A DNA stretch of 64,000 nt from Actinomycetes bacterium (GCA_021796545.1 JAKABX010000001.1:3977-67976); one strand, 5' to 3'; positions 1,973 through 64,000 are shown, counted from the first letter of the stretch. Translations and numbers: made by a program. The notes: generated by a model from the letters alone, not told the origin.

Positions 1973-1977
1973 CGCAG

Positions 1978-5194: not shown

Positions 5195-5214
5195 GACGCT
5201 ACCGGCCCGGCGCG

Positions 5215-6462: not shown

Positions 6463-6484
6463 CGGGGTGCAATCTACCGGCGGC

Positions 6485-7442: not shown

Positions 7443-7476
7443 ACCCCATGCCGGGCGGGCCCGGCGGATCGATCGA

Positions 7477-7510
7477 GCGACCCCGGCGCGCACCCGCGTG
7501 TCGGGGTCGC
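7477..7510. terminator. hairpin between convergent sodN and the DksA-like gene (candidate bidirectional terminator)
   Basis: Perfect 9-bp arms gcgaccccg (7477-7485) and cggggtcgc (7502-7510) with a 16-nt loop. No U-tract. Confidence 0.35.
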
Positions 7511-7528
7511 AACGCGTCTTGGCACAGT

Positions 7529-7801
7529 TCACGCGTGCGCGGCGCAGCGGTTCGCCGACGGGGCCCCGGAGACGACGTCGTCGCCCAGCGGCGCGCCGCA
7601 GACCTCACAGGTGCGCTCGCCACCCGACTCGAGCCGCTCGAGTGCCCGGCTCACCGCGGCGAGCGCCTCCTCGATCGCGTCGAGCTCGGCCCCGGCATCG
7701 GCGACCACCGGGTCGGGAACCGCGCGCAGCTCGTTGGCCGGGGTGTCGGCCACCTTGTCGGGCCCGGCGGCGGCAGGGGGCGGGGGGCTCTCGTCGGTCA
7801 T
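7529..7801 (-). CDS. TraR/DksA-family C4-type zinc-finger protein (variant CxxC-x17-CxxH)
   Basis: ATG at 7801 overlaps the ndh stop (ATGA, 7798-7801). 90 aa. Coiled-coil-like ELDAIEEALAAVSRALERLE, then CEVCGAPLGDDVVSGAPSANRCAAH. Confidence 0.65.
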   Translation of the reverse strand: MTDESPPPPAAAGPDKVADTPANELRAVPDPVVADAGAELDAIEEALAAVSRALERLESGGERTCEVCGAPLGDDVVSGAPSANRCAAHA

Positions 7802-9078
7802 TGGCGGTCCACCATGATCACCCGGCTCGCCCGATCCCAGGTGATGTAGTTCCACGCCCAGTTCACGAGGACGACGACGCGGTTGCGGAAGCCGATCAGG
7901 AACACGAGGTGGACGACGAGCCACGCGAGCCAGCCGACCGTTCCCCGCAGGGCGATGCGTCCGGGCAGCTCGGCGACGGCCGCCCGGCGGCCGATCGTGG
8001 CCATGATGCCGTGATTGTGATAGCGGAAGGCCGGTGCCGGCGCCCCCGCGAGACGACTGCGGATCACCCGGGCCACATGGCGACCACCCTGGATCGCAAC
8101 CTGCGCCAGCTGGGGGAGCGGACGGCCCTCGCCGCCGTCCACCAGCGCCATGTCGCCGACGACGAAAACCTCGGGGCGCCCGGGGAGCGAGAGGTCGGCG
8201 CCGACGGGAACGGTCCCGTTGCGGGCTCTGTCGCCAGGGAGCAGCTCGGCGAGCGGATTGGCGCGGACGCCGGCGGTCCACACGACCGTGGAGGCGACGA
8301 CCGCACGGCCGTCCGCCAGGAGAACGCCGTCGGCGCGCACCTCGGCAAGGGGGGCCTCGAGAAGGACCTCGACGCCTTTGGTGCGAAGGACGCGTAGCGC
8401 CTCCTCCTGCGACGCGCGCGAGAAGCCGCCGAGGAGATGATCGAGCGCCTCGACCAGCACGACGCGCGCATCGGAGACCTCGAGGTGCGGAAAGTCCAGC
8501 GCGAGGTTGGTCCCGATCAGCTCCGCCAGGGCGCCCGCCATCTCGACGCCGGTCGGTCCGCCACCGACCAGCACGACGGTGAGCAGGCCGGGCACCTTCT
8601 CGGGCTGGGCGTCGGCCCGCTCGAAGCACTCGAGAACGTGATTGCGCAGGTGGACGGCGTCGGCGAGCGTCTTCAGCGCGAACGCGTGCTCGGCGACGCC
8701 GGGGATGTCGAAGTCCGCCGTCGCGCTCCCCGGTGCGAGGACGAGATAGTCGTACTCGAGCGGATCGCCGCGATCGACGGCGACGACGCGTCGCTCGAGG
8801 TCGATGCCGGTCACCGCTGCATGGCGCACCGTGACGTCGGGGCGGCCGGCGAAGATCGACCGGATCGGGTGCGCGATGTCCTCGGGAGCGAGACCCGCCG
8901 TCGCGACCTGGTAGAGCAGCGGCCAGAAGCCGTGGTAGTTGTCCCGGTCGACGACCGTCACCTCCGCGCCCGAGCCGATGAGGCCGAGCGCGGCGTTGAG
9001 ACCGCCGAAGCCGGCGCCGACGACCACGACGCGCGGCCGCGGACGCCCGCGGGGGGCGATCGGTTCGGTCGTTGCCAT
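7798..9078 (-). CDS. ndh: type II NADH:quinone oxidoreductase (NDH-2)
   Basis: From the Met at 9078: MATTEPIAPRGRPRPRVVVVGAGFGGLNAA (FAD GxGxxG) and a second dinucleotide fold VVLVGGGPTGVEMAGAL. Track ORF is 7798..9126. Confidence 0.9.
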   Translation of the reverse strand: MATTEPIAPRGRPRPRVVVVGAGFGGLNAALGLIGSGAEVTVVDRDNYHGFWPLLYQVATAGLAPEDIAHPIRSIFAGRPDVTVRHAAVTGIDLERRVVAVDRGDPLEYDYLVLAPGSATADFDIPGVAEHAFALKTLADAVHLRNHVLECFERADAQPEKVPGLLTVVLVGGGPTGVEMAGALAELIGTNLALDFPHLEVSDARVVLVEALDHLLGGFSRASQEEALRVLRTKGVEVLLEAPLAEVRADGVLLADGRAVVASTVVWTAGVRANPLAELLPGDRARNGTVPVGADLSLPGRPEVFVVGDMALVDGGEGRPLPQLAQVAIQGGRHVARVIRSRLAGAPAPAFRYHNHGIMATIGRRAAVAELPGRIALRGTVGWLAWLVVHLVFLIGFRNRVVVLVNWAWNYITWDRASRVIMVDRQ

Positions 9079-9289
9079 CGCACTATCGTGCCCGATCCCC
9101 GCGCCGGCGCTGCACAGCGCCCGCACCTCGCTGGTGCTGGACGGACCGCGGGAATCGTGCTCAGCTTGCCCGCGTCAGCGGGTCCGCAGCGGGCGGACCG
9201 GGTACGGAGCGTCGGATCGGCCCCGGGGAGGCGGAGGTGGCCTTTGTGGTGGCGAGGCCCTCGACACCCCGGCGCGTGAGCGTCCACCG

Positions 9290-10462
9290 GTGATTCCCGA
9301 AGCGGACCGCCCCGAGGAGCCTGCCAACGCCGAGGAGCGTCCCGGCGTGGCGCAACCCGCCGCGCACCCCCCTGCGGGAGCCGGCTCCGGCGCGAGCGGC
9401 GACCTCGAGAACGACTTCGGCCCCCTCGGCCGGCCGTTCAGCCGCCGCTCGCCTTTCGTCGTCGGCTTTCTCGGCGCGCTCGGGGTCGCTCTCGCCTACA
9501 CGCTCTGGCGCGCCGTCGCCGACATCGGGGGCGTGCTGCTCGTCATCGGCGTGAGCTTCTTCCTCGCCGTCGGCCTCGCCCCCGCGGTCGAGTGGCTCAC
9601 CTCCCGCGGCATGCGCCGCGGGATCGCGGTGCTCGTGATCATCATCGCCTTCCTCGCCGTGATCGGCGGCTTCGTCGCCGCGGCGGTGCCACCGATCTCC
9701 CACGAGGTCTCCGCGCTGATCAACAAGCTCCCCGCCTACCGGCGCGACATCGCGGCCGGCCGCGGGCTCGTCGGGCACGTCGCAAAGAGCCTCCACCTCA
9801 CCAGCTACCTGACCGGCACGAAGACCGATCAACTCAAGTCCCTCGTGGAATCCGGCGCGCTCGGCGCGGGGCGCGCCCTCATCTCGGCGGGGACCGGGGT
9901 CGTGAGCGGGATCGTGCTGACGATCTACTTCCTCATCGCGCTCCCCAAGGTCCGCACGATGGGGCTCAATCTCGTGCCCGCGTCGCGGCGCGCCCGCACG
10001 GCGGCGCTGACCGACGAGGTCTTCAGCCGGGTGGGCGGCTTCGTCCTCGGCAATCTTCTGACCTCCCTGGTTTCGGGGGTCGGGACCTACATCTGGCTGG
10101 CCGCCTTCGGCATCCCCTACCCGTTCCTCCTCGCGCTCTTCGTCGCGCTCCTCGACCTCATTCCGGTCATCGGCTCGACGGTTGCCGGAATCGTCGTCTC
10201 GCTCGTCGCCCTCGTCCACGGCCTCGCCATCGCGGCGGGAACGGCCGCCTTCTATATTGGCTACCGGTTCTTCGAGGACTACCTGCTCACCCCCCGCGTC
10301 ATGCGGCACACGGTGCGGATCTCCCCCGGGCTGACCATCATCGCAACCCTCATCGGCGGAACGCTCCTCGGACTGATCGGGGCGCTCGTCGCGATCCCGT
10401 CCGCGGCGGCCGTCTACCTCCTGCTCGACGAGGTCGTCTTCCCGCGCATGGACCGCGCCTGA
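9290..10462 (+). CDS. AI-2E family transporter (UPF0118/PerM-like membrane protein)
   Basis: Multi-TM protein with LIPVIGSTVAGIVVSLVAL and GALVAIPSAAAVY segments typical of the family. The first in-frame start after the divergent ndh start is GTG 9290, so the start is uncertain. Confidence 0.75.
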   Translation: MIPEADRPEEPANAEERPGVAQPAAHPPAGAGSGASGDLENDFGPLGRPFSRRSPFVVGFLGALGVALAYTLWRAVADIGGVLLVIGVSFFLAVGLAPAVEWLTSRGMRRGIAVLVIIIAFLAVIGGFVAAAVPPISHEVSALINKLPAYRRDIAAGRGLVGHVAKSLHLTSYLTGTKTDQLKSLVESGALGAGRALISAGTGVVSGIVLTIYFLIALPKVRTMGLNLVPASRRARTAALTDEVFSRVGGFVLGNLLTSLVSGVGTYIWLAAFGIPYPFLLALFVALLDLIPVIGSTVAGIVVSLVALVHGLAIAAGTAAFYIGYRFFEDYLLTPRVMRHTVRISPGLTIIATLIGGTLLGLIGALVAIPSAAAVYLLLDEVVFPRMDRA

Positions 10463-14959: not shown

Positions 14960-15008
14960 CACCCCAGTGAAGCCGACCCGCGGCGCACGGGCCCGACGGG
15001 GCGGCGCG

Positions 15009-15079
15009 CTCCGGGGGGAGGGCTCGAACCTCCATTCTGGGATCCAAAGTCCCATGTCCTGCCATTGGACGACCCCGGA
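15009..15079 (-). tRNA. tRNA-Gln (anticodon UUG)
   Basis: Hand-folded cloverleaf on the minus strand. Acceptor TCCGGGG/CCCCGGA, D arm GTCC-AATGGCA-GGAC, anticodon arm TGGGA-CTTTGGA-TCCCA, T arm GGAGG-TTCGAGC-CCTCC. No encoded CCA. Confidence 0.9.
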
Positions 15080-50369: not shown

Positions 50370-51628
50370 CCACCCCATCCCTTGGTGAACAGCAGGATCT
50401 TCCCCGCCCCCGCCTCCCGCAGACGGAAGATCTCGCGCACGAGGGCGGGGGTGGCGACCATGAAGACGATGACGGCCTGGATCACCGTCGTCAGGTCGAT
50501 CGGGATCGAGGCGACCGCCTGCATGTACCGTCCCCCGGTCGACAGGGCCGCGAAGAGCAGCGACCCGAGGACGACCCCGAGGGGGCGGTTGCGCCCGAGC
50601 AGCGCGACGGTGATCGCATTGAAGCCGACCGCGCCGCCGTATCCGCTCGAGAGGAAGAAGTCGGTCCCCGAGACGGTCGACATGCCGGCCAGGCCGACGA
50701 GCGCCCCGGAGATCGTGAGCACCGCGATCGTCGCCCGCCGGGCGTCCATGCCCGCCGTCCGGCCGGCGGAGGGGTTGGCGCCGATCACGGTGAACTCGAA
50801 GCCGAGGGTGGACTTGCGCATGAACCACGAGGCCGCCGCCGCGACCGCGAGCGCGATGAGCAGTCCGAGGTTCACTCGCAGCGTCGAGCCGAACAGGTGC
50901 GGCAGGCGGGCGGTCATCGGGATCGTCTGCGAGATCGAGTTCGACTGGCCCGGCTGCTGGAGCGGATGGGTCGTGAGCAGGTACGCGAGCAGGTCGAGGA
51001 AGATGTAGTTGAGCATGATCGTGACGATCACCTCGTGCGCCCCCGTGCGCGCCTTGAGGATCCCCGGGATGAAGCCGGCAAGGGCGCCGCCGGCCGCCCC
51101 GGCGAGCACGACGAGCACGAGGTGGGGGACGAGCGGGAGGCTGACCCCGAAGCCGACGTAGGTGGCCGCCAGCGCGCCCGCGATGAGCTGGCCCTGTCCC
51201 CCGATGTTGAAGACGCCGGTCGAAAAGCCGATCGCGACGCCGGTTCCGGCAAGGATCAGCGGGGTCGCGGAGACGAGCGTCTCCGAGATCGGCGTAAAGA
51301 CCCCCGTCCATCCGCGGCCTGTCGTGAGCGCGTGGCCGAGTGCGGAGGGGCTGATCACCGAACCGGCGAAGAGCGCGCCGTAGGCGTTGCCGACGGTCGA
51401 GAAGCTGGTCGCGAAGGCGGCGCCCGGCGCGCGGCCGACAGCACCCCAGGCATGCAGGGTCGCCGGCGTCGTCACGATGATGAGCAGGGCACCGACCACG
51501 AGGCCGCCGACCACCGCGAGCAGCGTGACCACCGCGACGTTCGCCTCGGTGACGAAGGCGAGCACGCGGCGCCACCACGGCGTGCCCGGCGGCGACGGGG
51601 AGGCGAGGGCGCTCTCGGCCGCGCTCAC
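50366..51628 (-). CDS. ABC transporter permease (BMP/nucleoside-type, YufP/NupB-like)
   Basis: 420 aa. TGVFNIGGQGQLIAGAL. GTGA overlap with the ATPase stop. Confidence 0.85.
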   Translation of the reverse strand: MSAAESALASPSPPGTPWWRRVLAFVTEANVAVVTLLAVVGGLVVGALLIIVTTPATLHAWGAVGRAPGAAFATSFSTVGNAYGALFAGSVISPSALGHALTTGRGWTGVFTPISETLVSATPLILAGTGVAIGFSTGVFNIGGQGQLIAGALAATYVGFGVSLPLVPHLVLVVLAGAAGGALAGFIPGILKARTGAHEVIVTIMLNYIFLDLLAYLLTTHPLQQPGQSNSISQTIPMTARLPHLFGSTLRVNLGLLIALAVAAAASWFMRKSTLGFEFTVIGANPSAGRTAGMDARRATIAVLTISGALVGLAGMSTVSGTDFFLSSGYGGAVGFNAITVALLGRNRPLGVVLGSLLFAALSTGGRYMQAVASIPIDLTTVIQAVIVFMVATPALVREIFRLREAGAGKILLFTKGWGG

Positions 51629-53166
51629 GGCGACTCGCCCTTCGCCCCCCCGGGCGGCGGTGCAACCGCGTCGATGCCGGCCATGAGAAGGCCGATCCGG
51701 TCGCGCCCGACGCTCGGGTCGACGACGCCGGCGATCCTCCCGCGGTACATCACCGCGACGCGGTCGCCGAGGGCGAGGACCTCATCGAGCTCGGAGGAGA
51801 CCAGCAAAACGGCCGCGCCCCGGTCGCGCTCGGCGACGATGCGGCGGTGGACGTACTCGATCGAACCGACGTCGAGGCCGCGGGTCGGCTGGGAGCAGAC
51901 GAGGAGCTTGACGGGCCGGGAGAGCTCGCGCGCGACGACGACCTTCTGTTGGTTGCCACCCGAGAGCGTGCCGACGGCGACGGCGGCCGAGGGCGCGCGG
52001 ATGTCGAACTCGGCGAGCTTGCGCTCGCCGTCGGCCCGCACCCTCGCCAGGCGGCGCGCGCCGTGGCGCGCGTAGGGCGCCCGGTCGTACTGGTTGAGGA
52101 CGAGGTTGTCAGCGATCGAGAGGCTGAGCACGAGCCCGTCGCTCTGGCGGTCCTCGGGGACGTTGGCGACGCCCGCCTCGATCGCGCGGCGCGGTGTCGC
52201 GTGCGAAAGGTCGCGCCCGCCGACGCGGATCGTCCCCGCCGCGACGGCGCGCATGCCCGTCACCGCCTCGGCAAGCTCCGTCTGGCCGTTGCCCTGAACG
52301 CCCGCGACGGCCACGATCTCGCCGGCGCGCACGTCGAGGCTCACGTCGTCGACGACCGTGACCCCGCGGTCGTCGACGACGCGTAGGCCGGCAATTTCGA
52401 GCACCGCCTCTCCGGGTCGCGCCGGCTCCTTGTGCACGACCAGCTCGACCGAGCGGCCGACCATCATCGCGGCGAGCTGGTCCTCGTCGGTCTCGGCGGG
52501 CGTGGTGTGGCCGACGACCCGGCCCAGGCGGACCACCGTGATCCGGTCGGCGACCGCGAGCACCTCTTTCAGCTTGTGGGTGATGAACAAGATGGATCGG
52601 CCCGCGGCCACGAGCGAGCGCATGATGGTGAAGAGCGCCTCGGTCTCCTGCGGCGTGAGGACCGCGGTCGGCTCATCGAGGATCAGCACCTTGGCGTCAC
52701 GGATGAGGGCCTTCAGGATCTCGACTCGTTGCTGCGCGCCGACGGGGAGATGCTCAACCAGTGCGTCGGGATCGACGGCGAGGCCGAACTCGGCCGAGAG
52801 CCGACGGATTTCGGCCCGCGCGCGGCGCCGGTCGAGGAAGCCGAGACGGCGCACGGGCTCAAAGCCGAGCACGACGTTCTCCGCGACGCTGAAGACCGGG
52901 ACGAGCATGAAGTGCTGGTGCACCATGCCGATGCCGCGGCGCACGGCGTCCCCCGGGTCCGAGAAGCGCACCGGCTCACCGTCGATGCGGATCTCGCCTC
53001 CGTCGGCATGCAACAGACCGAACAGGACGTTCATGAGCGTCGTCTTGCCGGCGCCGTTCTCGCCGAGCAGGCAGTGGATCTCGCCCTCCTCGACGCTGAG
53101 GTCGATCCCGTCGTTGGCCACCAGGTCGCCGAAGCGCTTGGTGATGCCGGCGAGCTCGAGTCTCAT
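51625..53166 (-). CDS. ABC transporter ATP-binding protein (tandem NBD, sugar/nucleoside type)
   Basis: ATG 53166 gives MRLELAGITKRFG. Walker A GENGAGKTT, LSGGNQQKV and ILDEPT, plus a second NBD. 513 aa. Confidence 0.9.
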   Translation of the reverse strand: MRLELAGITKRFGDLVANDGIDLSVEEGEIHCLLGENGAGKTTLMNVLFGLLHADGGEIRIDGEPVRFSDPGDAVRRGIGMVHQHFMLVPVFSVAENVVLGFEPVRRLGFLDRRRARAEIRRLSAEFGLAVDPDALVEHLPVGAQQRVEILKALIRDAKVLILDEPTAVLTPQETEALFTIMRSLVAAGRSILFITHKLKEVLAVADRITVVRLGRVVGHTTPAETDEDQLAAMMVGRSVELVVHKEPARPGEAVLEIAGLRVVDDRGVTVVDDVSLDVRAGEIVAVAGVQGNGQTELAEAVTGMRAVAAGTIRVGGRDLSHATPRRAIEAGVANVPEDRQSDGLVLSLSIADNLVLNQYDRAPYARHGARRLARVRADGERKLAEFDIRAPSAAVAVGTLSGGNQQKVVVARELSRPVKLLVCSQPTRGLDVGSIEYVHRRIVAERDRGAAVLLVSSELDEVLALGDRVAVMYRGRIAGVVDPSVGRDRIGLLMAGIDAVAPPPGGAKGESP

Positions 53167-53267
53167 CGGGCGCAATCGTCGCGTACCCGCGTGGCGCGTG
53201 CGCGCCATGCGCGCGGCGCCCCGCCCCCGGCTCCCCCGCGGGGTCCGGAGCGGGGCGCCGGAGCGCG

Positions 53268-54455
53268 TCAGCTCGCGGGGTAGGAGTTCGGGTCGATCGA
53301 GATCTTGCCCGCCTCGATCTCCGCCTTGAGCTTGTTGAGCATCGCCTTCACCTTGGCGGGAACCTTGTTCGCGAACTGGTGGAAGGGCGCGAGCGCTACG
53401 CCGCCGTTGGCGAGGGTGCCGTTGTAGTTCCCGCCGTGGAAGGTCCCCCGCGCCGCGGCCTCCACCGCGGCGGACACCGACGCGGCGATGCCCTTGGTGA
53501 CGCTCGAGATGAACAGCGAGCAGTACTGCGGCGCGGAGACGCAGCCGTCGGTGTCGACCCACAGCATGTAGTGACCCGGCCCGGCCTGCTTCACCGCCGC
53601 GGCGGCACCGAGGCCGACCGCCCCGGCGACGGGAAAGATGATGTCCGCACCCTGGGCGATGAGGGTCTGGGTTGTCGTCTTGCCGAGTGCCTGGTTGGTG
53701 AAGTCGTTGGTGAAGGTGCCGTTGCCGGCGAAGGCACCCGAGGCGAAGTTCCGCTTCTTCGCGGGTGTCCAGCCCAGAGCCACGACGTGCGCGTGGTTGA
53801 CCTTGTCGTAGTAGCGCACCCCGGCGACGAAACCGTCCATGTAGATCGTGACCGGCGGGATGTCCTGACCGCCGAAGGTCCCGACCTTGCCGGTCTTGGA
53901 CATCGCGGCGGCGAGGTAGCCGCCGAGGAAGGCGTCCTGGTTCGTGTGGTACACGAGGCCGAGCACGTTCTTCATCGCCGGCGTGTAGGAGAAGTCCACG
54001 ATCGCGAACTTCTGATTGGGGTTCTTCTTCGCCGCGCTCTGGGTCGCCTGGGCCATGTCGAAGCCGACCGTGATGATGATCCCGCACTTCTCACCGATGA
54101 AGGTGCTGATGTTCGGGGCGTAGTCGCTCGTCGAGTTCGACTGGAGGTACTTGTAGCTCAGCCCGGGAATCGCCTTGGCCGCGATCTTGAGGCCAAGGTA
54201 CGCCGAAGCGTTGAACGAGCGGTCGTTGATGCCCCCGGTGTCGGTCACCTCGCAGGCAAGGAAGTGCTTGGCCGCGTGCGGCACGGCGACGGCGGGCGCG
54301 CGGTGCGCGGCGACACGGGGGGCCGTGCTCGCGCCGGCCCCCGCCGCGAGACCACCGACGGCTGCCACCGTCGTCACGGCCGCGGCAGACGCCGCCGACA
54401 GACGTGTGGCGACAAAGCGGCGGTGTGGGTTCACGACCTGGCTTTTTCTGCGCAT
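53268..54455 (-). CDS. BMP-family (PnrA-like) ABC substrate-binding protein
   Basis: ATG 54455 is preceded by gagaggggaa. Signal/anchor region, then VTDTGGINDRSFNASAY, which is typical of basic-membrane-protein nucleoside binders. Confidence 0.85.
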   Translation of the reverse strand: MRRKSQVVNPHRRFVATRLSAASAAAVTTVAAVGGLAAGAGASTAPRVAAHRAPAVAVPHAAKHFLACEVTDTGGINDRSFNASAYLGLKIAAKAIPGLSYKYLQSNSTSDYAPNISTFIGEKCGIIITVGFDMAQATQSAAKKNPNQKFAIVDFSYTPAMKNVLGLVYHTNQDAFLGGYLAAAMSKTGKVGTFGGQDIPPVTIYMDGFVAGVRYYDKVNHAHVVALGWTPAKKRNFASGAFAGNGTFTNDFTNQALGKTTTQTLIAQGADIIFPVAGAVGLGAAAAVKQAGPGHYMLWVDTDGCVSAPQYCSLFISSVTKGIAASVSAAVEAAARGTFHGGNYNGTLANGGVALAPFHQFANKVPAKVKAMLNKLKAEIEAGKISIDPNSYPAS

Positions 54456-54641
54456 GGATTCCCCTCTCGTGACTTTGGCGGGCCCTCGCCCGCGGCCCTC
54501 GTCGACCTTGCGGTCGCCCCCCGGGGCGCGTTCGCACCGGACGGCCAACCCTACGTTCTTGTTGCAGACCCGTCACGCCCGGATTCCCTTCGGGCGCGCG
54601 ACCGATCGACGGCGCACGCCACGTTCGGTAGCGTTCCGCGC

Positions 54642-57302
54642 ATGACCGAGCCGATCGAGCGTCCCACGGCGGGCGGGGACGACAGCGAGCACCGCCTGCC
54701 GAAGAATGTCTCCCCGGCCCGCTACGACCTGCACCTCGTGCCCGATCTCGAGGCGGCGACCTTCACCGGCACCGTGACCATCGAGGTCGAGGTGCGCGAG
54801 CGCACCGATCGCATTGTGTGCAACGCCGCTGAGCTCGAGGTCGCAGACGCGCGCGTTGCGCCGGGCTGGCGTTCGGGAGGCGACCCTTCGTCCCGGGGGT
54901 CCGCGTGCGCCGTCGAGATCGACGCGACGCGCGAGCGCGTCTGGTTCCACGCGGAGGGCCCGCTTCAGCCGGGTCGCTACAGCCTTTCGTGCGCGTTCAG
55001 CGGGGTCCTCAACGACAAGCTGCGCGGCTTCTACCGCAGCACCTTCACCGCAGACGACGGCACGACCCAGGTCATCGCGACGACCCAGTTCGAGGAGACC
55101 TCCGCCCGGCGCGCGTTCCCCTGCTTCGACGAACCGGACGCCAAGGCGGTCTTCGCCGTCACCCTCGATGCCCCCGCTGGCTGCCTCGCTCTGTCCAACG
55201 GCCCCGAGGTCGGCCGCGAGAGGCTCTCGGACGGTTCGACACGCTTCCGTTTCGGGGCCACGATCCCGATGTCGACCTACCTCGTCGCCTTCGTCGTCGG
55301 CCCGCTCGAGGTCACGTCCCCCCGGGACGTCGGCGGGGTACCGGTCCGTGTCGCCCACGTTCCGGGCCGAGGCGGCCTCACCGGCGCAGCGCTCGACGCG
55401 GCAGAGCACGCGCTCGGCTTCTTCGCCTCCTACTTCGGTCTCGCCTACCCCGCGGACAAGCTCGACCTGGTCGCGATCCCGGACTTCGCCGCGGGTGCGA
55501 TGGAGAACCTCGGCTGCGTGACCTTCCGCGAGGCGATCGTGCTCTCCGACCCGAACGACACGACCCATGCCGAGCGCGAACGCCTCGTGGAGGTTGTCGA
55601 CCACGAGCTCGCCCACATGTGGTTCGGCGATCTCGTCACGATGCGGTGGTGGAACGGCATCTGGTTGAACGAGGCGTTCGCCACGTTCATGGCACTCCTC
55701 TGCCAGAACGACTACCAACCCGAGCAGCGCGTGTTCACGAGCTTCGCGCGCAGCCGCGCCGCGGCCTTCGGGACCGACTCGCTCCACTCGACACGCCCGA
55801 TCGAGTACCCCGTGCACGCACCCGACGACGCCGCGGCGATGTTCGACGTGCTGACCTACGAGAAGGGCGCGAGCGTGCTGTGGATGCTCGAGAGCTTCCT
55901 CGGGCCCGAACGCTTCCGCGCGGGGGTGCGCGCCTATCTCGCGGCACACCGCTTCGGCAACACCGAGACGACCGACCTCTTCGACGCCCTCGGCGAGGAG
56001 GCCCCCGACATCCCGGTGCGCGAGACCATGGACTCCTGGATCTTCCAGGGCGGCTACCCGCTCGTGCGCGCCGCGCGCGTCGAGGGGGCGGGCGGCCCGG
56101 CGGTCGAGCTCACCCAGACCCCCTTCTCCTATTTGCCGGAGAAGGAGGCCGCCGAGCTCGGCGTGCTCCCCGAGGACGGCTCGGCGATCGGGCGGTCCTG
56201 GCTCATCCCCATGCTCGTCGCACCGGTCGGTGCCGGAGACAAGCAGGTGAGCCGCGTCCTGCTCGGCCACGAGCCGCAGCGCCTCGAGCTCAGCGGCCCG
56301 GTGGTGCTCAACGCGGGCGGTACCGGCTTCTACCGTCTCTCCTACGAAAGCGAGCTCCTCCAGGACCTCCTCGGGCACCTCTACGAGCTGAGCCCGCTCG
56401 AGCGCTTCAGCCTCCTTGGCGACACCTGGGCGGCCGCGCTGGCCAGCCAGGCGCCGCTGCGCGACACGCTCGGGATCCTCGATCGTCTCCGGGACGAGCG
56501 TGACCCCCACGTCTGGTCGCTCGCGTCGAGGATCCTGTGGCTCCTTGATCTCGTTGCCCCCGAGGAGCAGCGCCCGGCGCTGCACCGCTACGGGCGCGAC
56601 ATCGCCCAGGAGGCGTTCGCACGGATCGGCTGGCAGCCGCGCGCCGACGAGGGCGCGCTGGACGCCCTGCTGCGCCCGACCCTGGTCTCCCTGCTCGGCC
56701 GCGTGCTTCGCGACCCGGAGGTGATCGCGCGCGCCCACGAGCTGTTCGCACACGACCACGGAGGTGGGGCGGTCGTCGACCCGAACGTCGCGAGCGCGGT
56801 CGTCGGCGTGGTCGTCTCCGACGCGAGCCGCGCGGAGCTCGACGCGGTCATCGCCCGCTGCCGCCACCCCCGCGACCCGATGGACCAGGTCCGCCACATC
56901 TACGCGCTGGCATCGCTGCGCGACCCGGCCTTCATCGAAGAGATTCTCGGTCTGTGCATGAGCGAGATCCGCTCGCAGAACGCCCCGGTGCTGCTCGGCG
57001 CGATGCTGACCGAGCGGGAGAGCGGACCGCTCGCCTTCGATCACGTCCGGTCGCACTTCACCGAGATGGGCACGCGCTTCCCCGACAACCTCGTCGAGCG
57101 CATGCTCGGGGGCATCTCCGGCCTCGCGCAGGTGAACGCGGCCGGTGAGCCCGTCCACCTCGCGGAGGTCCTGGCCTTCGTCCGCAACGCGGTGCACGGT
57201 GCGCGACGCCGCCACGTCAACCAGGCGCTCGAGCGGCTCGCCGTGAACCTGCGGCTCGCCCGCTCGCTGCGCGCCGAGGCGCTGCCCCTGCCGGAGCGGT
57301 AG
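54642..57302 (+). CDS. pepN: aminopeptidase N (M1 family)
   Basis: ATG 54642. GAMENLGCVTF (GAMEN) and HELAHMWFGDLVTMRWWNGIWLNEAFA (HExxH-x18-E). 886 aa. The upstream 421 codons of the track ORF are antisense to the BMP gene. Confidence 0.93.
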   Translation: MTEPIERPTAGGDDSEHRLPKNVSPARYDLHLVPDLEAATFTGTVTIEVEVRERTDRIVCNAAELEVADARVAPGWRSGGDPSSRGSACAVEIDATRERVWFHAEGPLQPGRYSLSCAFSGVLNDKLRGFYRSTFTADDGTTQVIATTQFEETSARRAFPCFDEPDAKAVFAVTLDAPAGCLALSNGPEVGRERLSDGSTRFRFGATIPMSTYLVAFVVGPLEVTSPRDVGGVPVRVAHVPGRGGLTGAALDAAEHALGFFASYFGLAYPADKLDLVAIPDFAAGAMENLGCVTFREAIVLSDPNDTTHAERERLVEVVDHELAHMWFGDLVTMRWWNGIWLNEAFATFMALLCQNDYQPEQRVFTSFARSRAAAFGTDSLHSTRPIEYPVHAPDDAAAMFDVLTYEKGASVLWMLESFLGPERFRAGVRAYLAAHRFGNTETTDLFDALGEEAPDIPVRETMDSWIFQGGYPLVRAARVEGAGGPAVELTQTPFSYLPEKEAAELGVLPEDGSAIGRSWLIPMLVAPVGAGDKQVSRVLLGHEPQRLELSGPVVLNAGGTGFYRLSYESELLQDLLGHLYELSPLERFSLLGDTWAAALASQAPLRDTLGILDRLRDERDPHVWSLASRILWLLDLVAPEEQRPALHRYGRDIAQEAFARIGWQPRADEGALDALLRPTLVSLLGRVLRDPEVIARAHELFAHDHGGGAVVDPNVASAVVGVVVSDASRAELDAVIARCRHPRDPMDQVRHIYALASLRDPAFIEEILGLCMSEIRSQNAPVLLGAMLTERESGPLAFDHVRSHFTEMGTRFPDNLVERMLGGISGLAQVNAAGEPVHLAEVLAFVRNAVHGARRRHVNQALERLAVNLRLARSLRAEALPLPER

Positions 57303-57309
57303 AGCGTCG

Positions 57310-57900
57310 GTGAATTTCGCGCTCGCGGCGACGACCTTCGCGGTCATCATCCCCGCGGAGCTGCCCGACAAGACCTTCATCGCCGCGGTGGTGATGAGCG
57401 CGCGCAACCGCCCGCTGCCGGTGTGGATCGGCGCCGCGGCGGGCCTCATCGTCCAGGCCCTCGTCGGCGTCGTGGCCGGGCGCCTGCTCGCGCTGCTCCC
57501 CCACCGGTCGGTCGAGGGCATCGTCGCGGCGCTCTTCCTCCTCGGTGGCGGCTACCTGCTCCTCACCCGTGAGCGCGCCGTGGTGCGCGCCGGCGAGGGC
57601 CTCGCCGAGGCCGTGGGGGCCGCCGCCTCGGCGCGAGTCGCTCTGCGCGCCTTCGGGCTCATCGCGTTCGCCGAGTTCGGTGACCTGACCCAGGTCGTCA
57701 TCGCCAACCTGACGGCGCGCAGCGGGGACCCCCTCAGCGTCTTGGTCGGGGCGGCGCTCGCGTTCGTCCTCCTCAGCGCCGTCGCCGTTCTTGCCGGGCG
57801 GACGCTCGTGCGCCACGTCTCCCTCGCCCTCGTCCGCAGGATCTCGGGCGTCGTGCTGGTCGGCCTGGGGGTCTGGAGTCTCGTCGGGGCGCTGGGATGA
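57310..57900 (+). CDS. UPF0016 (GDT1/TMEM165/MneA-like) cation transporter
   Basis: 196 aa with the two family repeats AELPDKTF and EFGDLTQ. Confidence 0.8.
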   Translation: MNFALAATTFAVIIPAELPDKTFIAAVVMSARNRPLPVWIGAAAGLIVQALVGVVAGRLLALLPHRSVEGIVAALFLLGGGYLLLTRERAVVRAGEGLAEAVGAAASARVALRAFGLIAFAEFGDLTQVVIANLTARSGDPLSVLVGAALAFVLLSAVAVLAGRTLVRHVSLALVRRISGVVLVGLGVWSLVGALG

Positions 57901-58577
57901 GCGTGGTCCCGGCGCCGGGAGCGCGCGCGGCCGGCCTCCTCGCCCGGGCGCGGGCGACCGCCGGCTTCCTCGATACCGGGGAGGGCGAGCGCCTCTATGC
58001 GCTCGCCGCAGAGGTCGGCACCGCGCAGCAGGGTGCGCTCGTCGAGATCGGCAGCTACCGCGGCCGCTCGACACTGTTCCTCGCAGCCGGCGTCGCACAG
58101 GCCCGCGACGCCGGCGCGGGGTCGGCCGTGCTGCTGAGCGTCGACCACCACCGGGGGTCCGAAGAGATGCAGGCGGGCTGGGAGCACCACGACCCGAGCC
58201 TTGTCGACCCGGTGACGGGGAAGATGGACTCGCTGCCGGCTCTCCGGGCGAACCTCGCGGCCGCCGGGGCCGAGGATCTCGTCGTCGTCGTGGTCGGCGA
58301 CTCACCCGTCGTCGCGAGACACCTCGTCGGGACCGCCGGGCTCGTCTTCGTGGACGGGGGGCACGCTGCGGAGGTCGCCGAGGTCGACTACCACGCCTGG
58401 GCGCCCAAGGTCGCAGCGGGAGGGCTCCTGTGCTTCCACGACGTCTTCGCCGACCCCGCGGACGGCGGGCAGGCGCCCTACGCGTGCTACCGCGACGCTC
58501 TGGCGTCAGGGCGCTTTGTCGAGCGGGGCGCCGATCGCATCGGGAGCCTGCGGGTCCTCGAGCGCCGCGTCCGATAA
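57897..58577 (+). CDS. class I SAM-dependent methyltransferase (Methyltransf_24/CmcI-like)
   Basis: ATGA overlap with the UPF0016 gene. LVEIGSYRGRSTLFLA and VFVDGGHAAEV. Confidence 0.7.
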   Translation: MSVVPAPGARAAGLLARARATAGFLDTGEGERLYALAAEVGTAQQGALVEIGSYRGRSTLFLAAGVAQARDAGAGSAVLLSVDHHRGSEEMQAGWEHHDPSLVDPVTGKMDSLPALRANLAAAGAEDLVVVVVGDSPVVARHLVGTAGLVFVDGGHAAEVAEVDYHAWAPKVAAGGLLCFHDVFADPADGGQAPYACYRDALASGRFVERGADRIGSLRVLERRVR

Positions 58578-58581
58578 GGGC

Positions 58582-59610
58582 TCAGCGTCTCCCCGGGGCA
58601 AAGACCGCGGCAGCCGGCCCGCCCGCGAGGGCGTCCGCGGCGAGCAGGACCGCGGCCGCCGTGTAGGTCGTGCGCTCGCCCGTCGGGAACGACGAGAGCT
58701 CGGGATAGACGAGACCGGTGAGGTAGGAGCCGTCGTCCTGGCGCGCGGCGCGCGTGGCGACGAGCAGGGCGTCGGCCTTCCTCCTCAGGCCGGCGCGCAG
58801 GCACGCGAGCGCGCACTCGGCCGTCTCGGCGGCGGTCACCCAGCGACGGTCGTCCCGGCAGAGGACGCCCTGCCCCGGCCGGACGAAGCGCTCCCAGCCC
58901 GCCGCGAGGCGGTGGCGCGCGGCGGCACCCCCGAGGACGCCGGCGAGGACGGGGTAGTACCAGTCCATCGCATAGTGGTCCTTCGCCGAGAATGCCGCGC
59001 GCCGCCAGGTGAGCGCGAGCGCGAGGCGCGAGGCGGCGTCGGTGACAAACGCGGGCAGCCAGAGGTCGAGCGCCATGGCCAGATCCTCGGCCGCGCGCAG
59101 GCTCGCGTGGATCGACGAGCAGGCGGCGATGAGCGCGAGGTCACCCCGCGAACCGCTTGGGGCGTCCGACCAGCAGATCGCGCCGCTCGGTCGCTGCTGG
59201 GCGCAGACAAATCCGAGGGCCCGCACCGCAGCGGGCCAGTAGCGGCGCACGAGCGCCGCGTCGCCGGACACGTGCCACAGCTGCGCGAGCGCGAAGGACA
59301 GGTAGGCGCTGCCGTTGGTGTCGCGGCGCCTATCGACGACGCTGCCGTCGGGGCCGTAGCCGGCCGCGAAGGCGCCGCCGGGCTCCTGGTGCGCGACGAG
59401 CGCGGCGACGGCGCGCTCGGCGGCGTCGGGCGCGCCCGAGACCGCGAGCGCCATCGCGGCCTCGAGGTGGTTCCAGGGGTCGGCGTGCTGCCCGTCGGCG
59501 TGGGGGATCAAGCCCGAGGCCGTCTGGGCGGCGAGGATCGTCGCCGCGGTCTGCGCTCGCTCGGCGGCCGAGAGCGGCGCGCCGAACGACGCTGCGGGCG
59601 CGCCGGTCAC
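58582..59610 (-). CDS. prenyltransferase/squalene-oxidase-repeat-like (alpha/alpha toroid) protein
   Basis: GTG 59610 (GTGA overlap with the upstream methyltransferase stop). 342 aa with repeated aromatic/Gly helical-hairpin segments (QEPGGAFAAGYGPDG, QQRPSGAICW, RQDDGSYLTG), like terpenoid-cyclase/prenyltransferase repeats. Confidence 0.6.
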   Translation of the reverse strand: MTGAPAASFGAPLSAAERAQTAATILAAQTASGLIPHADGQHADPWNHLEAAMALAVSGAPDAAERAVAALVAHQEPGGAFAAGYGPDGSVVDRRRDTNGSAYLSFALAQLWHVSGDAALVRRYWPAAVRALGFVCAQQRPSGAICWSDAPSGSRGDLALIAACSSIHASLRAAEDLAMALDLWLPAFVTDAASRLALALTWRRAAFSAKDHYAMDWYYPVLAGVLGGAAARHRLAAGWERFVRPGQGVLCRDDRRWVTAAETAECALACLRAGLRRKADALLVATRAARQDDGSYLTGLVYPELSSFPTGERTTYTAAAVLLAADALAGGPAAAVFAPGRR

Positions 59611-60326
59611 GGCGCCGCCAGGCGCCGGCAGTAGAGGACGAGGCTCTTGCCGAGGATCGGATCGAGGCCGCGCTCGACGCGGCGCAGCCAGCGGGGACGG
59701 TGCACGATGTCGTGGACGAGGAGACGGTGGTAGGCCGCGACCGCACGCTGGTCGTCGCGGGCGACGCCGACCAGGCAGCGCAGCCACCAGTAGGGGGTGT
59801 GCAGCGCATGCGCGTGGTGGGCGGCGCTGATGCAAAACCCCGCGCGCTCGAGGCGCGCGCGAAGCTGGCCGCGGCGGTAGATGCGGACATGGCCGCCCGG
59901 AGCGCCGTGGTACTGCGCCGAGAGCAGCCAGTTGACCGCCTCGGGCCAGGCGCGCGGCACGCTCAGAGCGAGGACCCCGCCGGGCCGAAGGACGCGTGCG
60001 AGCTCGGCCAGCGCGCGGCCGTCCTCGGGGACGTGCTCGAGGACCTCTGATGCGACGACGTGGGTGAAGCTCCCGCTCGTGAAGGGCAGGGTGCACGCGT
60101 CGGCGCCCAGCGCCCCCCAGCGGACGGCGCCATCGATCTCCCCGGCCGCCGCCATCGCAGCGAGCATCGTCCGCACCTCCCCGAGCTCGCCCGGACTCGT
60201 GTCGAGAGCCACGACCTCGGCGCCAGCGCGCGCGCAGGCGAAGGCGTGCCGCCCACCGCCGCAGCCCACGTCGAGGACGCGGGCACCCGGTCCGATTCCG
60301 GCGCGGGTGAGATCGACCGTCAGCAC
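59607..60326 (-). CDS. class I SAM-dependent methyltransferase (Methyltransf_11-like)
   Basis: GTG 60326. VLDVGCGGGRHAFACARAGAEVVALDTS and LRPGGVLALSVP. 7-nt overlap with the GT4 stop. Confidence 0.8.
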   Translation of the reverse strand: MLTVDLTRAGIGPGARVLDVGCGGGRHAFACARAGAEVVALDTSPGELGEVRTMLAAMAAAGEIDGAVRWGALGADACTLPFTSGSFTHVVASEVLEHVPEDGRALAELARVLRPGGVLALSVPRAWPEAVNWLLSAQYHGAPGGHVRIYRRGQLRARLERAGFCISAAHHAHALHTPYWWLRCLVGVARDDQRAVAAYHRLLVHDIVHRPRWLRRVERGLDPILGKSLVLYCRRLAAP

Positions 60327-61654
60327 CGCGCGACCCGTCCGGGGTGCTCGGCGAGCACCTCCCTGTAGACCTCGAGCGTCCCGGTCGCCGTCGCCGTCCA
60401 GCTGAAGCGCTCGCAGACCCGGCGCCGACCAGCTGCACCGAGACGCGCCCCGAATGCGGGGTCATCGAGGACCCGCCCGATCGCGTGCGCGAGCGCGCCG
60501 GGGTCGCCCGGGGGCACGAGGAGCGCGTGCTCGCCGTCGTTGCCCGCGACCTCGGGAAGCGCGCCCCCCGTCGTCGCGACGAGCGGTGTCCCGCACGCGA
60601 GCGCCTCGGCGGCGGGAAGGGAGAACCCCTCGTACAGCGAGGGCACGACCGCGCAGGCGGCCTCGGCGTAGCGGCGCGCGATCTGCTCGTCGCTCTCGCC
60701 GCCGACGAAGGTGACGACACCTTGGAGGCCGAAGCGCTCCAGCGCGACGCGCACCGGCGAGTCGGCCCGCAGGCGCCCGACGACGACGAGGTGGGCCTCG
60801 GGCCTCTCCGTCCTCAGCTTCGCGAGCGCCTCCAGGAGGACGGCGAGACCCTTCAGCGGGACGTCGGCGCTCGCAGTGGTCATCAGGCGACCCGGCACGC
60901 GCGCAACCCCGGGGTCGGGACGGTAGAGCGAGGCGTCGACGCCCGCGGGGACGACGCGCACCCGCTCCTCGGGGACGCCGAGCCCCCGGACGAGGTCGTC
61001 GCGCGAGGAGTCCGAGACGGTGATGAGCCGGGCGAGACGGCGCGCGACACGGTCCTGCATCGCGGCAAAGCCGTACCAGCGCCGAAGCGACAGGCGGCGC
61101 GCGCCGCTGTGGGCGTGGGCGAGGTCGACCGCGCGGTCGACGCTCACCGGGTGGTGGATCGAGGCGACGAGCGGCCAGCCGTCCGCGAGCATCCCGAGCA
61201 GGCCGGTGCCAAGACACTGGTCGTCATGGACGATGTCGAAGTCGCCGCGCCGGCCCTGCAGAGCCCCCCGCGCGCGCAGCGAGAAGGTCCGCGGCTCGGG
61301 GAAGCCGCCGGTCCACATCGTCGCGAGCTCGAGCAGATCGACCGCCGAGGTGAGCTCGCGCGGGTGGGGTGTGCGGAACGGGGTCGGCTCGCGGTAAAGG
61401 TCGAGGCTCGGCAGGCGCACGAGCTCGGCGCCACCGTCGAGGACCGGGTAGGGCTGGCCCGAGAAGACGGTGACGCGCTGACCGAGCCCGGTGAGCTCAC
61501 GGGCGAGATGCCGGACGTAGACCCCCTGGCCACCGCAGTGCGGGTTGCCCCGGTAGCAGAGCAGAGCGATCCGCAGGCCATCTCCCCCACGCGACGCGCG
61601 CCCGGATGCGAAGGGGCCGCCCGCCATGGCGCTACAGCCTCGCCGCTCGTGCAC
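60320..61654 (-). CDS. GT4-family glycosyltransferase
   Basis: LRIALLCYRGNPHCGGQGVYVRHLAREL and EGFSLPAAEALACGTPLVAT. The start is 61654 or Met 61627. Confidence 0.82.
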   Translation of the reverse strand: MHERRGCSAMAGGPFASGRASRGGDGLRIALLCYRGNPHCGGQGVYVRHLARELTGLGQRVTVFSGQPYPVLDGGAELVRLPSLDLYREPTPFRTPHPRELTSAVDLLELATMWTGGFPEPRTFSLRARGALQGRRGDFDIVHDDQCLGTGLLGMLADGWPLVASIHHPVSVDRAVDLAHAHSGARRLSLRRWYGFAAMQDRVARRLARLITVSDSSRDDLVRGLGVPEERVRVVPAGVDASLYRPDPGVARVPGRLMTTASADVPLKGLAVLLEALAKLRTERPEAHLVVVGRLRADSPVRVALERFGLQGVVTFVGGESDEQIARRYAEAACAVVPSLYEGFSLPAAEALACGTPLVATTGGALPEVAGNDGEHALLVPPGDPGALAHAIGRVLDDPAFGARLGAAGRRRVCERFSWTATATGTLEVYREVLAEHPGRVARC

Positions 61655-61686
61655 CGGCGCCGCAACCGGTGGGCAGGCCCCGTCGC

Positions 61687-62073
61687 TCAGTACTCGGTCA
61701 TCCCCCGAACCTCCTGCTGCCAGCGCTCGAACTCGGGCGACATCGTGATCGGGAGCAGCGACATGAGCTTCACGGCATCCCCCTCGACCCGGATGCGGCC
61801 CTGCAGGAACGCCGCGTTGGTGTCGAGCTCACCTTGCTGGATCGCGACGGCGTCCTCGTAGGACTGGGTGAGGGTGACCTCGGCATCGGCAAGGATGCCG
61901 AGGCGGTTCTCCTTCAGGTGCCCGTCCTCGACGATCCAGTAGTAGTGGACGTCGCCGTCTGGACCGCCCTCGACGACGTACTGCAGCCGCGCGCTCGCGC
62001 CGGGCCGTTCGGGCTGATCCGCCGACAGCCGGGTGCTCTCGTCCAGCCACTCCTGGGTCAAGAACCTTGTCAT
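61687..62073 (-). CDS. SCP2 (sterol-carrier-protein-2-like) domain protein
   Basis: 128 aa. FLTQEWLDE...AEVTLTQSYEDAVAIQQGELDTNAAFLQGRIRVEGDAVKLMSL is typical of actinobacterial SCP2 domains. Confidence 0.75.
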   Translation of the reverse strand: MTRFLTQEWLDESTRLSADQPERPGASARLQYVVEGGPDGDVHYYWIVEDGHLKENRLGILADAEVTLTQSYEDAVAIQQGELDTNAAFLQGRIRVEGDAVKLMSLLPITMSPEFERWQQEVRGMTEY

Positions 62074-62139
62074 CGCTCTCCTCCCCTCGCGCGCACGCGC
62101 GCCTCTTCCCGCGCCCTCATGGCACCTCGGAGCCCCGCC

Positions 62140-63030
62140 TCAGGCCGCCGAGCCGCCGAGCGCGCTTTCCCCGACCCCCGCGAAAAGGTCATCCTCGGGC
62201 GGCATCACCGCGACGCGGCTGCGCGCGAGAAGGTAGGGGTCGAACACGTGCAGCTCGCGCTCGACCTCGGGGGGCAGCCCGAACCAGTGCGGCGAGTGCG
62301 GGTCAATCTGTGTGGCGTGCGCGAGCAGGCCGGCACGGCGCGCGTCGGAGAAGCCGCTCACGTCGACCCGGGTCGTGACCTCGGGAACCGGAGCGCGCTC
62401 CAGCCACCCCTCCTCGATGCGCTTGGTGTAGGGCGACTCGAGGCCGAGCTCGAGAAACTTCTCGTGGCGGGCGATCATGTGCTCGACCGGCCAGAGGCTG
62501 TAGTAGAGCTTGTCCGGCGCGAAGGGTGCCCCGACCTCGGGGAACGCGGACGGGTCGCCGGCGGCCTCGAAGGCCGCGACCGAGATCGCGTGCGTCTTTA
62601 GGTGATCGGGGTGCGGATATCCGCTCTGGTCCTCGGGGTAGGTGACGACGACCTGCGGCCGTTCGCGGCGGATCACCCCGACGAGGCGTGCGACCGCCTC
62701 CTCGGGGGGCGCCGCGTTGAACGAGCGCGGATCGCTGTTGGCGGGGCTCTCGGGCATGCCCGAGTCCCGGTAGCCGAGAAGGACGACCGCGTCGTAACCG
62801 ATCGCCCTGGCCGCCGCCATCAGCTCGCGGCGGCGGACCGCCGCGAGGTCCCGGCGCACCTCGGGCAGGTCCATCGCGGGATTGAGAATGTCCCCCTCCT
62901 CACCGCCGGTGCAGGTGACGAGGACGGTCCGCACACCGGCCGCGTGGTAGCGCGCGACGGTCGCGGCGCCCTTGGAGGCCTCGTCATCGGGGTGCGCGTG
63001 CACGCAGAGCAGGCAGAGTCCGTCAGCCAT
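62140..63030 (-). CDS. mca: mycothiol S-conjugate amidase
   Basis: ATG 63030 gives MADGLCLLCVHAHPDDEASKGAATVARY...VTCTGGEEGDILNP...GYPHPDH...HATQIDP. Close to Mtb Mca (Rv1082) as I recall it. MshB is the less likely alternative. Confidence 0.82.
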   Translation of the reverse strand: MADGLCLLCVHAHPDDEASKGAATVARYHAAGVRTVLVTCTGGEEGDILNPAMDLPEVRRDLAAVRRRELMAAARAIGYDAVVLLGYRDSGMPESPANSDPRSFNAAPPEEAVARLVGVIRRERPQVVVTYPEDQSGYPHPDHLKTHAISVAAFEAAGDPSAFPEVGAPFAPDKLYYSLWPVEHMIARHEKFLELGLESPYTKRIEEGWLERAPVPEVTTRVDVSGFSDARRAGLLAHATQIDPHSPHWFGLPPEVERELHVFDPYLLARSRVAVMPPEDDLFAGVGESALGGSAA

Positions 63031-63265
63031 GCCCGCGAAGCTACCGGAGCGCGCCGCCCGAGCGGCACGGGCGGCGCGCTCCGGTGGCCCACAGCCGGCT
63101 ACCAGCCTGAGCTGGGACGCTCGCGGGTACGACGGCCAACGGCCGCGGGCGGGACGGAGCGACCGGGGCATATGCTCCATGGCAGGGCGTTCGCTCCCGC
63201 AACGCCGGAGACCCCGGCGCCCGGGTGGGACGCGAGCAGTTGCACAACATCGCCGAGGAGCGCAG

Positions 63266-64000
63266 ATGAGCGTGATGAAGCGCCTGTCGGGCATCGTCCA
63301 GGCCAAGGCGAACAAGGTCCTCGATCGCGTCGAGGACCCCCGCGAGACGCTGGACCTGTCCTACGAGAAGCAGCTCGAGCAGCTCCAGCAGGTCCGCAAG
63401 GGCGTCGCCGACATCGCGACGGCGCGCAAGCGGATCGAGCTCCAGGCGCGTCAGCTTCAGCAGAGCGCCGACAAGCTGCAGGGCCAGGCGACGATGGCCC
63501 TCCAGCAGAACCGCGAGGACCTCGCCCGCGAGGCCCTCTCGCGCCGCGCGGGCATCGCGACCCAGCTCGAGCAGCTGAAGGTCCAGCACGACCAGCTCGT
63601 CTCCCAGGAGGAGCGGATGGTCGCGACGACCCAGCAGCTCGAGGCGCGCGTCACCTCCTTCCGCACCCAGAAGGAGACGCTCAAGGCCTCCTACACCGCG
63701 GCCGCGGCCCAGACCCGCATCGGCGAGGCGGTGTCGGGCATCTCGGAGTCGATGAGCGACACCGGCCTCGCCCTCGAGCGAGCCCAGGACAAGGTCGCCC
63801 AGATGCAGGCGCGCGCGAGCGCGATGGACGAGCTGCTCTCCTCCGGTGCGCTGACCGACCTCACCGGATCGACCGACCCGCTCCAAGCCGAGCTCGAGCG
63901 CGGCAGCCAGCAGGGCCAGGTGGAACTCGAGCTCGCCCGCCTGAAGGGCCAGCTCGGCACCGCACCGGCGCCGGGCGCACTGGGTGCCGGGGCGCCGGCC
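63266..64000 (+). CDS. pspA: PspA/IM30 family protein (3' end beyond the window)
   Basis: Own translation from ATG 63266 (SD gaggag) gives MSVMKRLSGIVQAKANKVLDRVEDPRETLDLSYEKQLEQLQQVRKGVADIATARKRIELQ..., a continuous coiled coil. No stop by 64000, hence absent from the ORF track. Confidence 0.88.
   Translation, partial: MSVMKRLSGIVQAKANKVLDRVEDPRETLDLSYEKQLEQLQQVRKGVADIATARKRIELQARQLQQSADKLQGQATMALQQNREDLAREALSRRAGIATQLEQLKVQHDQLVSQEERMVATTQQLEARVTSFRTQKETLKASYTAAAAQTRIGEAVSGISESMSDTGLALERAQDKVAQMQARASAMDELLSSGALTDLTGSTDPLQAELERGSQQGQVELELARLKGQLGTAPAPGALGAGAPA

Follow-up and report, generated by a model that had tools for sequence, protein, structure and literature searches.

We analysed the genes at positions 57310 to 62073 of a 64-kb stretch of a metagenome-assembled contig from an Actinomycetes bacterium (GCA_021796545.1, JAKABX010000001.1:3977-67976); this stretch, hereafter called the window, is also present on contig k141_1394543 of ENA ERZ27237515 and in GCA_021844245.1. 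Six open reading frames (ORFs) lie at these positions (Table 1). They were placed correctly in an initial annotation made from the nucleotide sequence, and the domain families named there were confirmed by Pfam and NCBIfam, except for that of a 342-amino-acid (aa) protein. Three of the genes, manT, pmeT3 and mmpH, run together on the minus strand, and meT1 converges on them from the plus strand. Sequence comparison makes it very likely that positions 57897 to 61627 are an orthologue of the actinobacterial cluster for 3-O-methylmannose polysaccharide (MMP), arranged as manT-pmeT3-mmpH with a convergent meT1.

The junctions between the genes were read from the sequence. gdt1 and meT1 overlap in an ATGA (57897 to 57900), pmeT3 and mmpH share a 4-nucleotide (nt) GTGA, and manT and pmeT3 overlap by 7 nt, all as initially described. 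The second methyltransferase gene was also correctly located as converging on mmpH, but the spacer between the two stop codons is 4 nt (58578 to 58581) and not 5 nt. Gene calls on the source contigs start manT at the ATG at 61627 and not at the GTG at 61654, and in that version the homology of the product to mycobacterial ManT starts at residue 18.

In mycobacteria, the MMP cluster consists of the four genes meT1, mmpH, pmeT3 and manT, and its product is a cytoplasmic polymethylated polysaccharide thought to bind fatty acyl chains (PMC9883506). The loci are MHAS_04402-04405 in M. hassiacum and MSMEG_6481-6484 in M. smegmatis (PMC9883506, Maranha 2023). The initial annotation knew of no characterised pathway with the gene set of the window; the mycobacterial cluster has the same core. 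We used a Mycolicibacterium locus (L085), retrieved through its MmpH homologue, as the reference for BLASTP of the four window proteins. All four paired one-to-one and nearly over their full length, with identities of 52% (ManT), 49% (MeT3), 40% (MmpH) and 49% (MeT1). Gene order, orientation, the 7-nt manT/meT3 overlap and the abutting convergent meT1 were identical in the two loci. In the PDB, a biochemically characterised M. hassiacum homologue was the best match for three of the proteins and the sole match for MmpH and MeT1. The cluster in the window matches the MMP cluster in its genes, in their arrangement, in the fold of MmpH and in the validated catalytic residues of ManT and MmpH; among these features it departs only at Asp50 and Trp315 of MmpH. 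It also differs from the mycobacterial cluster in its host, an uncultured non-mycobacterial member of the Actinomycetota whose nearest relatives are Acidimicrobiia-type metagenome-assembled genomes (MAGs), and in its surroundings, as meT1 comes at the end of a pepN-gdt1 unit and the other flank carries mca and an SCP2-domain gene instead of the mycobacterial neighbours.

Table 1 Features of the window and of related loci (L numbers) referred to in the text; positions are those of the window or of the locus named.
Locus	Feature	Position	Strand	Product or match
Window	gdt1	57310-57900	+	GDT1/UPF0016 cation transporter, Pfam 125 bits
Window	meT1	57897-58577	+	Methyltransf_24 (Pfam), 226 aa; convergent on mmpH
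Window	mmpH	58582-59610	-	342 aa, (alpha/alpha)6 barrel; "toroid" protein of the initial annotation
Window	pmeT3	59607-60326	-	Class I S-adenosylmethionine (SAM)-dependent methyltransferase, Methyltransf_11 (Pfam), 239 aa
Window	manT	60320-61627 (ATG); alternative GTG start 61654	-	Glycosyltransferase family 4 (GT4), GT-B fold, 435 aa from ATG
Window	SCP2-domain gene	61687-62073	-	SCP2 (Pfam), 32 bits
Window	mca	62140-63030	-	TIGR03446 (NCBIfam), 295 bits against an equivalog cut-off of 277
Window	tRNA-Gln(TTG)	15008-15079	-	
Window	Uptake genes	51625-54548	-	Bmp-family lipoprotein, ABC ATPase and permease
Window	PspA/IM30 gene	63266-64000	+	Runs off the window end
Window	ORF	63041-63886	-	High-GC shadow of the PspA/IM30 gene
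L085 (Mycolicibacterium)	ManT	6054-7289	+	
L085	MeT3	7283-8008	+	
L085	MmpH	8001-9065	+	
L085	MeT1	9062-9766	-	
L086 (Nonomuraea gerenzanensis)	Four MMP genes	10.959-10.964 Mb		Unannotated in NZ_LT559118.1
L005	LuxR/GerE-family gene	5199-5861		
L006	LuxR/GerE-family gene	5150-5809		
L007	LuxR/GerE-family gene	930-1538		
L018	LuxR/GerE-family gene	1768-2379		
L007, L009-L011, L018, L023, L025, L027, L040, L046, L049, L050, L057, L060, L061, L065, L074, L079, L083	Nramp/MgtE genes	About 2.4-6.0 kb		Just upstream of manT

The 342-aa protein gave no match to Pfam or NCBIfam, and its sole PDB match was 7QSJ, the M. hassiacum MmpH (E 4e-61, residues 14-330). We modelled it using AlphaFold2 (pLDDT 94.7, pTM 0.92) and compared the model using Foldseek. 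The structure 7QSJ was matched at a TM of 0.90 and a root-mean-square deviation of 1.7 Å; other (alpha/alpha)6 glycosidases reached 0.66-0.73 and terpene synthases 0.54-0.56. The protein keeps the catalytic base E262 and the acid candidate D47, together with W49, N101, M215, Y219 and E265. Alignment and model together identify it as an MmpH homologue with an (alpha/alpha)6 barrel, predicted to be an MMP alpha-(1->4)-endomannosidase. The initial label, a prenyltransferase/squalene-oxidase-repeat protein, corresponds to a resemblance at the level of the fold only. Structural modelling had been proposed there as a check, and its result, a glycoside hydrolase, is the outcome that had been named beforehand as speaking against the proposal.

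The toroids of class II terpene cyclases and prenyltransferases have the same alpha/alpha barrel topology, and a few MmpH homologues match SQHop_cyclase_N weakly, whereas the acidic sugar-binding cleft of the window protein bears glycosidase catalytic residues. The inverting (alpha/alpha)6 glycosidases of families GH15 and GH125 (clan GH-L) have the same fold as MmpH, with the catalytic base in the same place. Unlike these families, MmpH is an endo-acting alpha-1,4-mannosidase without their Arg/Asp pair in the -1 subsite, and it does not belong to them at the sequence level.

The MmpH family comprised 110 clusters (50% identity) with E values of 1e-30 or lower, and 523 when the limit was relaxed to 1e-10. 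Its members are named "prenyltransferase", [quoted passage not shown] or "terpene cyclase/mutase family protein" at NCBI, scattered records are labelled "GH95", "GH15" or "oligosaccharide amylase", and the correct label, "MMP endo-(1,4)-3-O-methyl-alpha-D-mannosidase", is found on some JGI records only. An enzyme family that has been characterised is thus systematically misannotated. Two homologues carry additional sequence at the N-terminus: P0277 (740 aa) has a long extension with a weak match to a nonribosomal peptide synthetase Condensation domain, and P0260 (519 aa) has an extension of approximately 180 aa of no assigned family.

ManT matched 7QSG, the M. hassiacum ManT structure deposited alongside 7QSJ, with an E value of 3.9e-134; the next match was at 1e-28. 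Nine of the ten listed residues of the mycobacterial enzyme are kept in the window (G15, H142, K240, D293, E313, G314, F315, L317 and E321). The only differing position is L291, a main-chain contact, which aligns to E. Alanine variants of K240, E313 and E321 lose activity (PMC9883506), and the activity of ManT increases about 5-fold with Mg2+. The window protein is thus the predicted GDP-mannose-dependent alpha-(1->4)-mannosyltransferase of MMP.

The 239-aa methyltransferase aligned with pMeT3 of the Mycolicibacterium locus over 237/239 aa (E 5e-88, 49% identity) and is the putative SAM-dependent 3-O-methyltransferase of MMP. An apparent MeT3-MmpH fusion was found in P0241 (606 aa), whose N-terminal part is 65% identical to the window MeT3 and whose C-terminal part is 54% identical to the window MmpH; the domains of P0248 (590 aa) are arranged likewise. 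These two are candidate fusions, the alternative being gene calls joined by a frameshift where the two genes overlap; as fusions, they would support a functional link among the core genes.

The only PDB matches of the 226-aa methyltransferase were 6G7D, 6G80 and 6H40 (E 5e-52, residues 14-223), with long conserved motifs. The PDB names these entries only "Methyltransferase domain protein"; we take them to be MeT1, the MMP 1-O-methyltransferase of M. hassiacum. This identification is backed by the pairing of the window protein with MeT1 of the Mycolicibacterium locus at 49% identity. Ripoll-Rozada 2019 is reportedly an earlier study of the mycobacterial MMP cluster and MeT1. The 226-aa protein is probably MeT1, a predicted 1-O-methyltransferase of the reducing end of MMP.

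The neighbourhood was then compared across related genomes. A scan with an MmpH alignment of one genome per GTDB species yielded at least 598 confirmed matches, and the best 80 were taken for locus analysis by tblastn of the window proteins; the denominators below are the loci with enough flanking sequence. These 80 are MAGs labelled Acidimicrobiia (the most frequent label), Acidimicrobiales, Ilumatobacteraceae (Ilumatobacter belongs to the class Acidimicrobiia) or unclassified Actinomycetota, with a few evidently mislabelled records. ManT, MeT3 and MmpH were adjacent and co-directional in 66/69 loci. Because this order recurs so regularly, the core arrangement is not due to chance. In 36/46 loci, MeT1 was encoded no more than 7-8 kb away.

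The cluster was also found outside these MAGs. Only one record of the plasmid collection was matched by tblastn, NZ_LT559118.1 of Nonomuraea gerenzanensis (class Actinomycetes, Streptosporangiales; L086 in Table 1), and all four MMP genes lie together in it. This record, named "plasmid I", is an 11.85-Mb circular molecule with only 10 annotated features and is evidently a chromosome. It resembles the window in that the genes for ManT, MeT3 and MmpH lie side by side, that MeT1 is encoded on the other strand, and that MmpH has N50 and Y315. The Nonomuraea cluster differs from the window in that MeT1 lies about 1.2 kb away and does not abut mmpH. Its proteins are 55-59% identical to the mycobacterial ones, as against 39-51% to those of the window.

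According to the initial annotation, six genes (the SCP2 gene, a prenyl-binding toroid protein, the GT4 enzyme, two methylases and the UPF0016 transporter) form a unit that builds a methylated glycolipid or a glycosylated isoprenoid. This is consistent with the short distances in the window, namely the 59-nt gap between the SCP2 gene and manT and the ATGA shared by gdt1 and meT1, and an acyl-binding SCP2 neighbour would not be absurd for MMP, itself a proposed acyl-chain binder. The related loci, however, argued otherwise. SCP2 was near the MMP genes in 6 of 46 loci, at 0.9-5.4 kb from manT and separated from it by unrelated genes (a LuxR-type regulator in some; MgtE-N/CBS, alpha/beta hydrolase and Nramp genes in others). 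GDT1 was present in 12/46, at 38-1974 nt from meT1 and never overlapping it as in the window. Neither SCP2 nor GDT1 was found near the Mycolicibacterium cluster or in that of Nonomuraea, and Mca was likewise absent near the former. As SCP2 and GDT1 are rare and separated from the core across loci, they represent local synteny and not components. PepN was found near the MMP genes in 19/46 loci and Mca in 3/46, and mca lies directly beside SCP2 in all four loci with enough flanking sequence to show it. SCP2, mca, gdt1 and pepN are flanking genes belonging to the local synteny of this lineage and are not components of the MMP system. A role for SCP2 as an acyl carrier alongside MMP was also considered and rejected on synteny. 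With the toroid protein being a glycoside hydrolase homologue, far closer in structure to MmpH than to terpene synthases, the six-gene proposal is very improbable. Two parts of it hold: manT-pmeT3-mmpH is a conserved minus-strand unit, although one that excludes SCP2, and a glycosyltransferase and two methyltransferases cooperate on a methylated glycan, of which the known product is a soluble cytoplasmic polysaccharide and not a glycolipid or isoprenoid.

Several points weigh against the assignment to MMP. MmpH of the window departs from the mycobacterial enzyme at four pocket positions (D50N, W315Y, F102G and T163A); these changes, along with an identity of only 40%, mean that the cleavage pattern or the substrate could differ. 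Demonstrations of MMP come from mycobacteria alone, apart from an acetylated form that Streptomyces griseus makes (PMC9883506). The 3-O-methyltransferase activity of pMeT3 is putative even in mycobacteria. In addition, MeT1 is not adjacent to the core in over half of the related loci; it was convergent and adjacent in 31/72.

The pocket changes bear on a second explanation, that a cluster homologous to that of MMP makes a chemically distinct methylated mannan, differing in acetylation, chain length, methylation or cleavage pattern, with MmpH tuned to it. Asp50 (N47 in the numbering of the window protein) is the other candidate for the acid besides Asp47, and Trp315 (Y316 in the window protein) stacks in the -1 subsite; both are described as highly conserved (PMC9883506). 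N50 and Y315 are fixed in all 22 sampled homologues of the clade (22/22), and positions F102 and T163 vary. Together with the low identity of the window MmpH to the characterised enzyme, this would fit an altered substrate. The acetylated variant (AMMP) is the product of S. griseus, and the ManT of that species shares 53% identity with the M. hassiacum enzyme. On the other hand, the catalytic base, the D47 acid candidate and most subsite residues are kept, and Pfam searches and gene calls showed no acyltransferase gene in or beside the cluster. N50 and Y315 are shared by Nonomuraea, whose MmpH has 55% identity to its mycobacterial counterpart. Since a protein closer to the mycobacterial enzyme carries the residues of the window, D50 and W315 appear to be a state specific to Mycobacteriales, as this comparison suggests. 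The residual activities of the MmpH variants are approximately 34% for D47A, approximately 29% for D50A and 0% for the glutamate-base variant (PMC9883506 source data). As D50A remains partly active, an asparagine at position 50 should be compatible with hydrolysis. We therefore rejected D50N as an inactivating change, given also that N50 is common to a distant lineage. A distinct mannan is an unlikely product of the cluster, and synthesis of MMP is the preferred reading.

The steps of MMP synthesis, other than the putative 3-O-methylation, have been demonstrated for the mycobacterial enzymes (PMC9883506) and are extended to the window by orthology. MmpH would cut internally in MMP, a chain of 11-14 alpha-1,4-linked 3-O-methylmannoses, to yield tetra/penta- and hepta/octa-mannosides. 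These fragments would serve as primers for ManT, which would elongate them through alpha-(1->4) bonds using GDP-mannose as the donor. pMeT3 is proposed to methylate the added mannoses at the 3-O position in a SAM-dependent manner, and MeT1 would cap free reducing ends by 1-O-methylation. The outcome would be a self-priming, "partially conservative" replication, in which fragments of old chains prime new ones. The presence of an endomannosidase gene could instead point to genes for the salvage or breakdown of methylmannans from outside the cell. The tight coupling of a glycosyltransferase and two methyltransferases to the hydrolase argues against this, as does the lack of an associated signal peptide or uptake system. 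Furthermore, loss of MmpH in M. smegmatis abolishes MMP biogenesis (PMC9883506), and the mmpH mutant of that species grows slowly at 15 °C. We consider a salvage function barely credible and retain the biosynthesis of MMP.

We examined how the cluster may be transcribed in this organism. pepN, gdt1 and meT1 have the same direction, and pepN and gdt1 are separated by 7 nt. On the basis of this gap and the ATGA overlap that follows, the three genes are probably transcribed as one unit that ends with meT1. A promoter and terminator scan of positions 57000 to 63400 found none, as expected at approximately 75% GC; the operon boundaries were therefore drawn from gene spacing. Searches of the 64 kb with Rfam and ARAGORN detected a single RNA gene, tRNA-Gln(TTG), and no riboswitch near the cluster. 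A LuxR/GerE-family regulator gene is located directly upstream of manT, on the side of SCP2 and before it, in the two closest relatives of the window (L005 and L006) and occurs in two further loci (L007 and L018). It is missing from the window, and it could be a regulator of the cluster that was lost or moved in this lineage.

Beyond the flanking genes, the window encodes a nucleoside-type uptake system upstream of pepN. The PspA/IM30 gene lies beyond mca, and in a longer source contig (L001) the gene calls continue with PspAA, an M48 peptidase and PspAB, together a Psp-type membrane-stress module.

In the Acidimicrobiia-type MAGs, the MMP cluster is repeatedly flanked on either side by genes for divalent-metal transporters. 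Just upstream of manT, Nramp was found in 18/80 loci and MgtE-N/CBS in 18/80, with both in 17/80 (listed in Table 1); on the other side, GDT1 follows meT1. We considered GDT1 as a supplier of metal for the MMP enzymes and keep it as a neighbourhood pattern, which may be functional or may be inherited synteny.

The main value of the analysis for the window is a correction: the function of the cluster has already been dissected experimentally, and the label "prenyltransferase" is misleading. The D50N and W315Y changes are natural sequence variants for probing the mechanism of MmpH. The published survey of MMP clusters is limited to mycobacteria and a small number of relatives, with no mention of Acidimicrobiia (PMC9883506), and the literature searched contained no later report for this class. 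A modest new point is how common the MMP cluster is among uncultured Actinomycetota of the Acidimicrobiia type. This hints at a far wider occurrence of MMP-type polysaccharides in uncultured Actinomycetota than has been published. We give an even chance to a broader proposal, that MMP-type polysaccharides are no speciality of mycobacteria and Streptomyces but widespread in non-mycolate, uncultured Actinomycetota, among them many Acidimicrobiia from freshwater, soil and marine habitats, that N50 and Y315 of MmpH are ancestral, and that the cluster often lies amid Nramp, MgtE-N/CBS and GDT1 genes. Such a wide distribution would bear on the purpose of MMP, for which the role proposed so far is in mycobacterial fatty-acid metabolism and cold adaptation. 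If the proposal is true, the role of the polymer would not be tied to the envelope-lipid metabolism of mycobacteria and would be more general, for example in cold adaptation or in the buffering of acyl chains.

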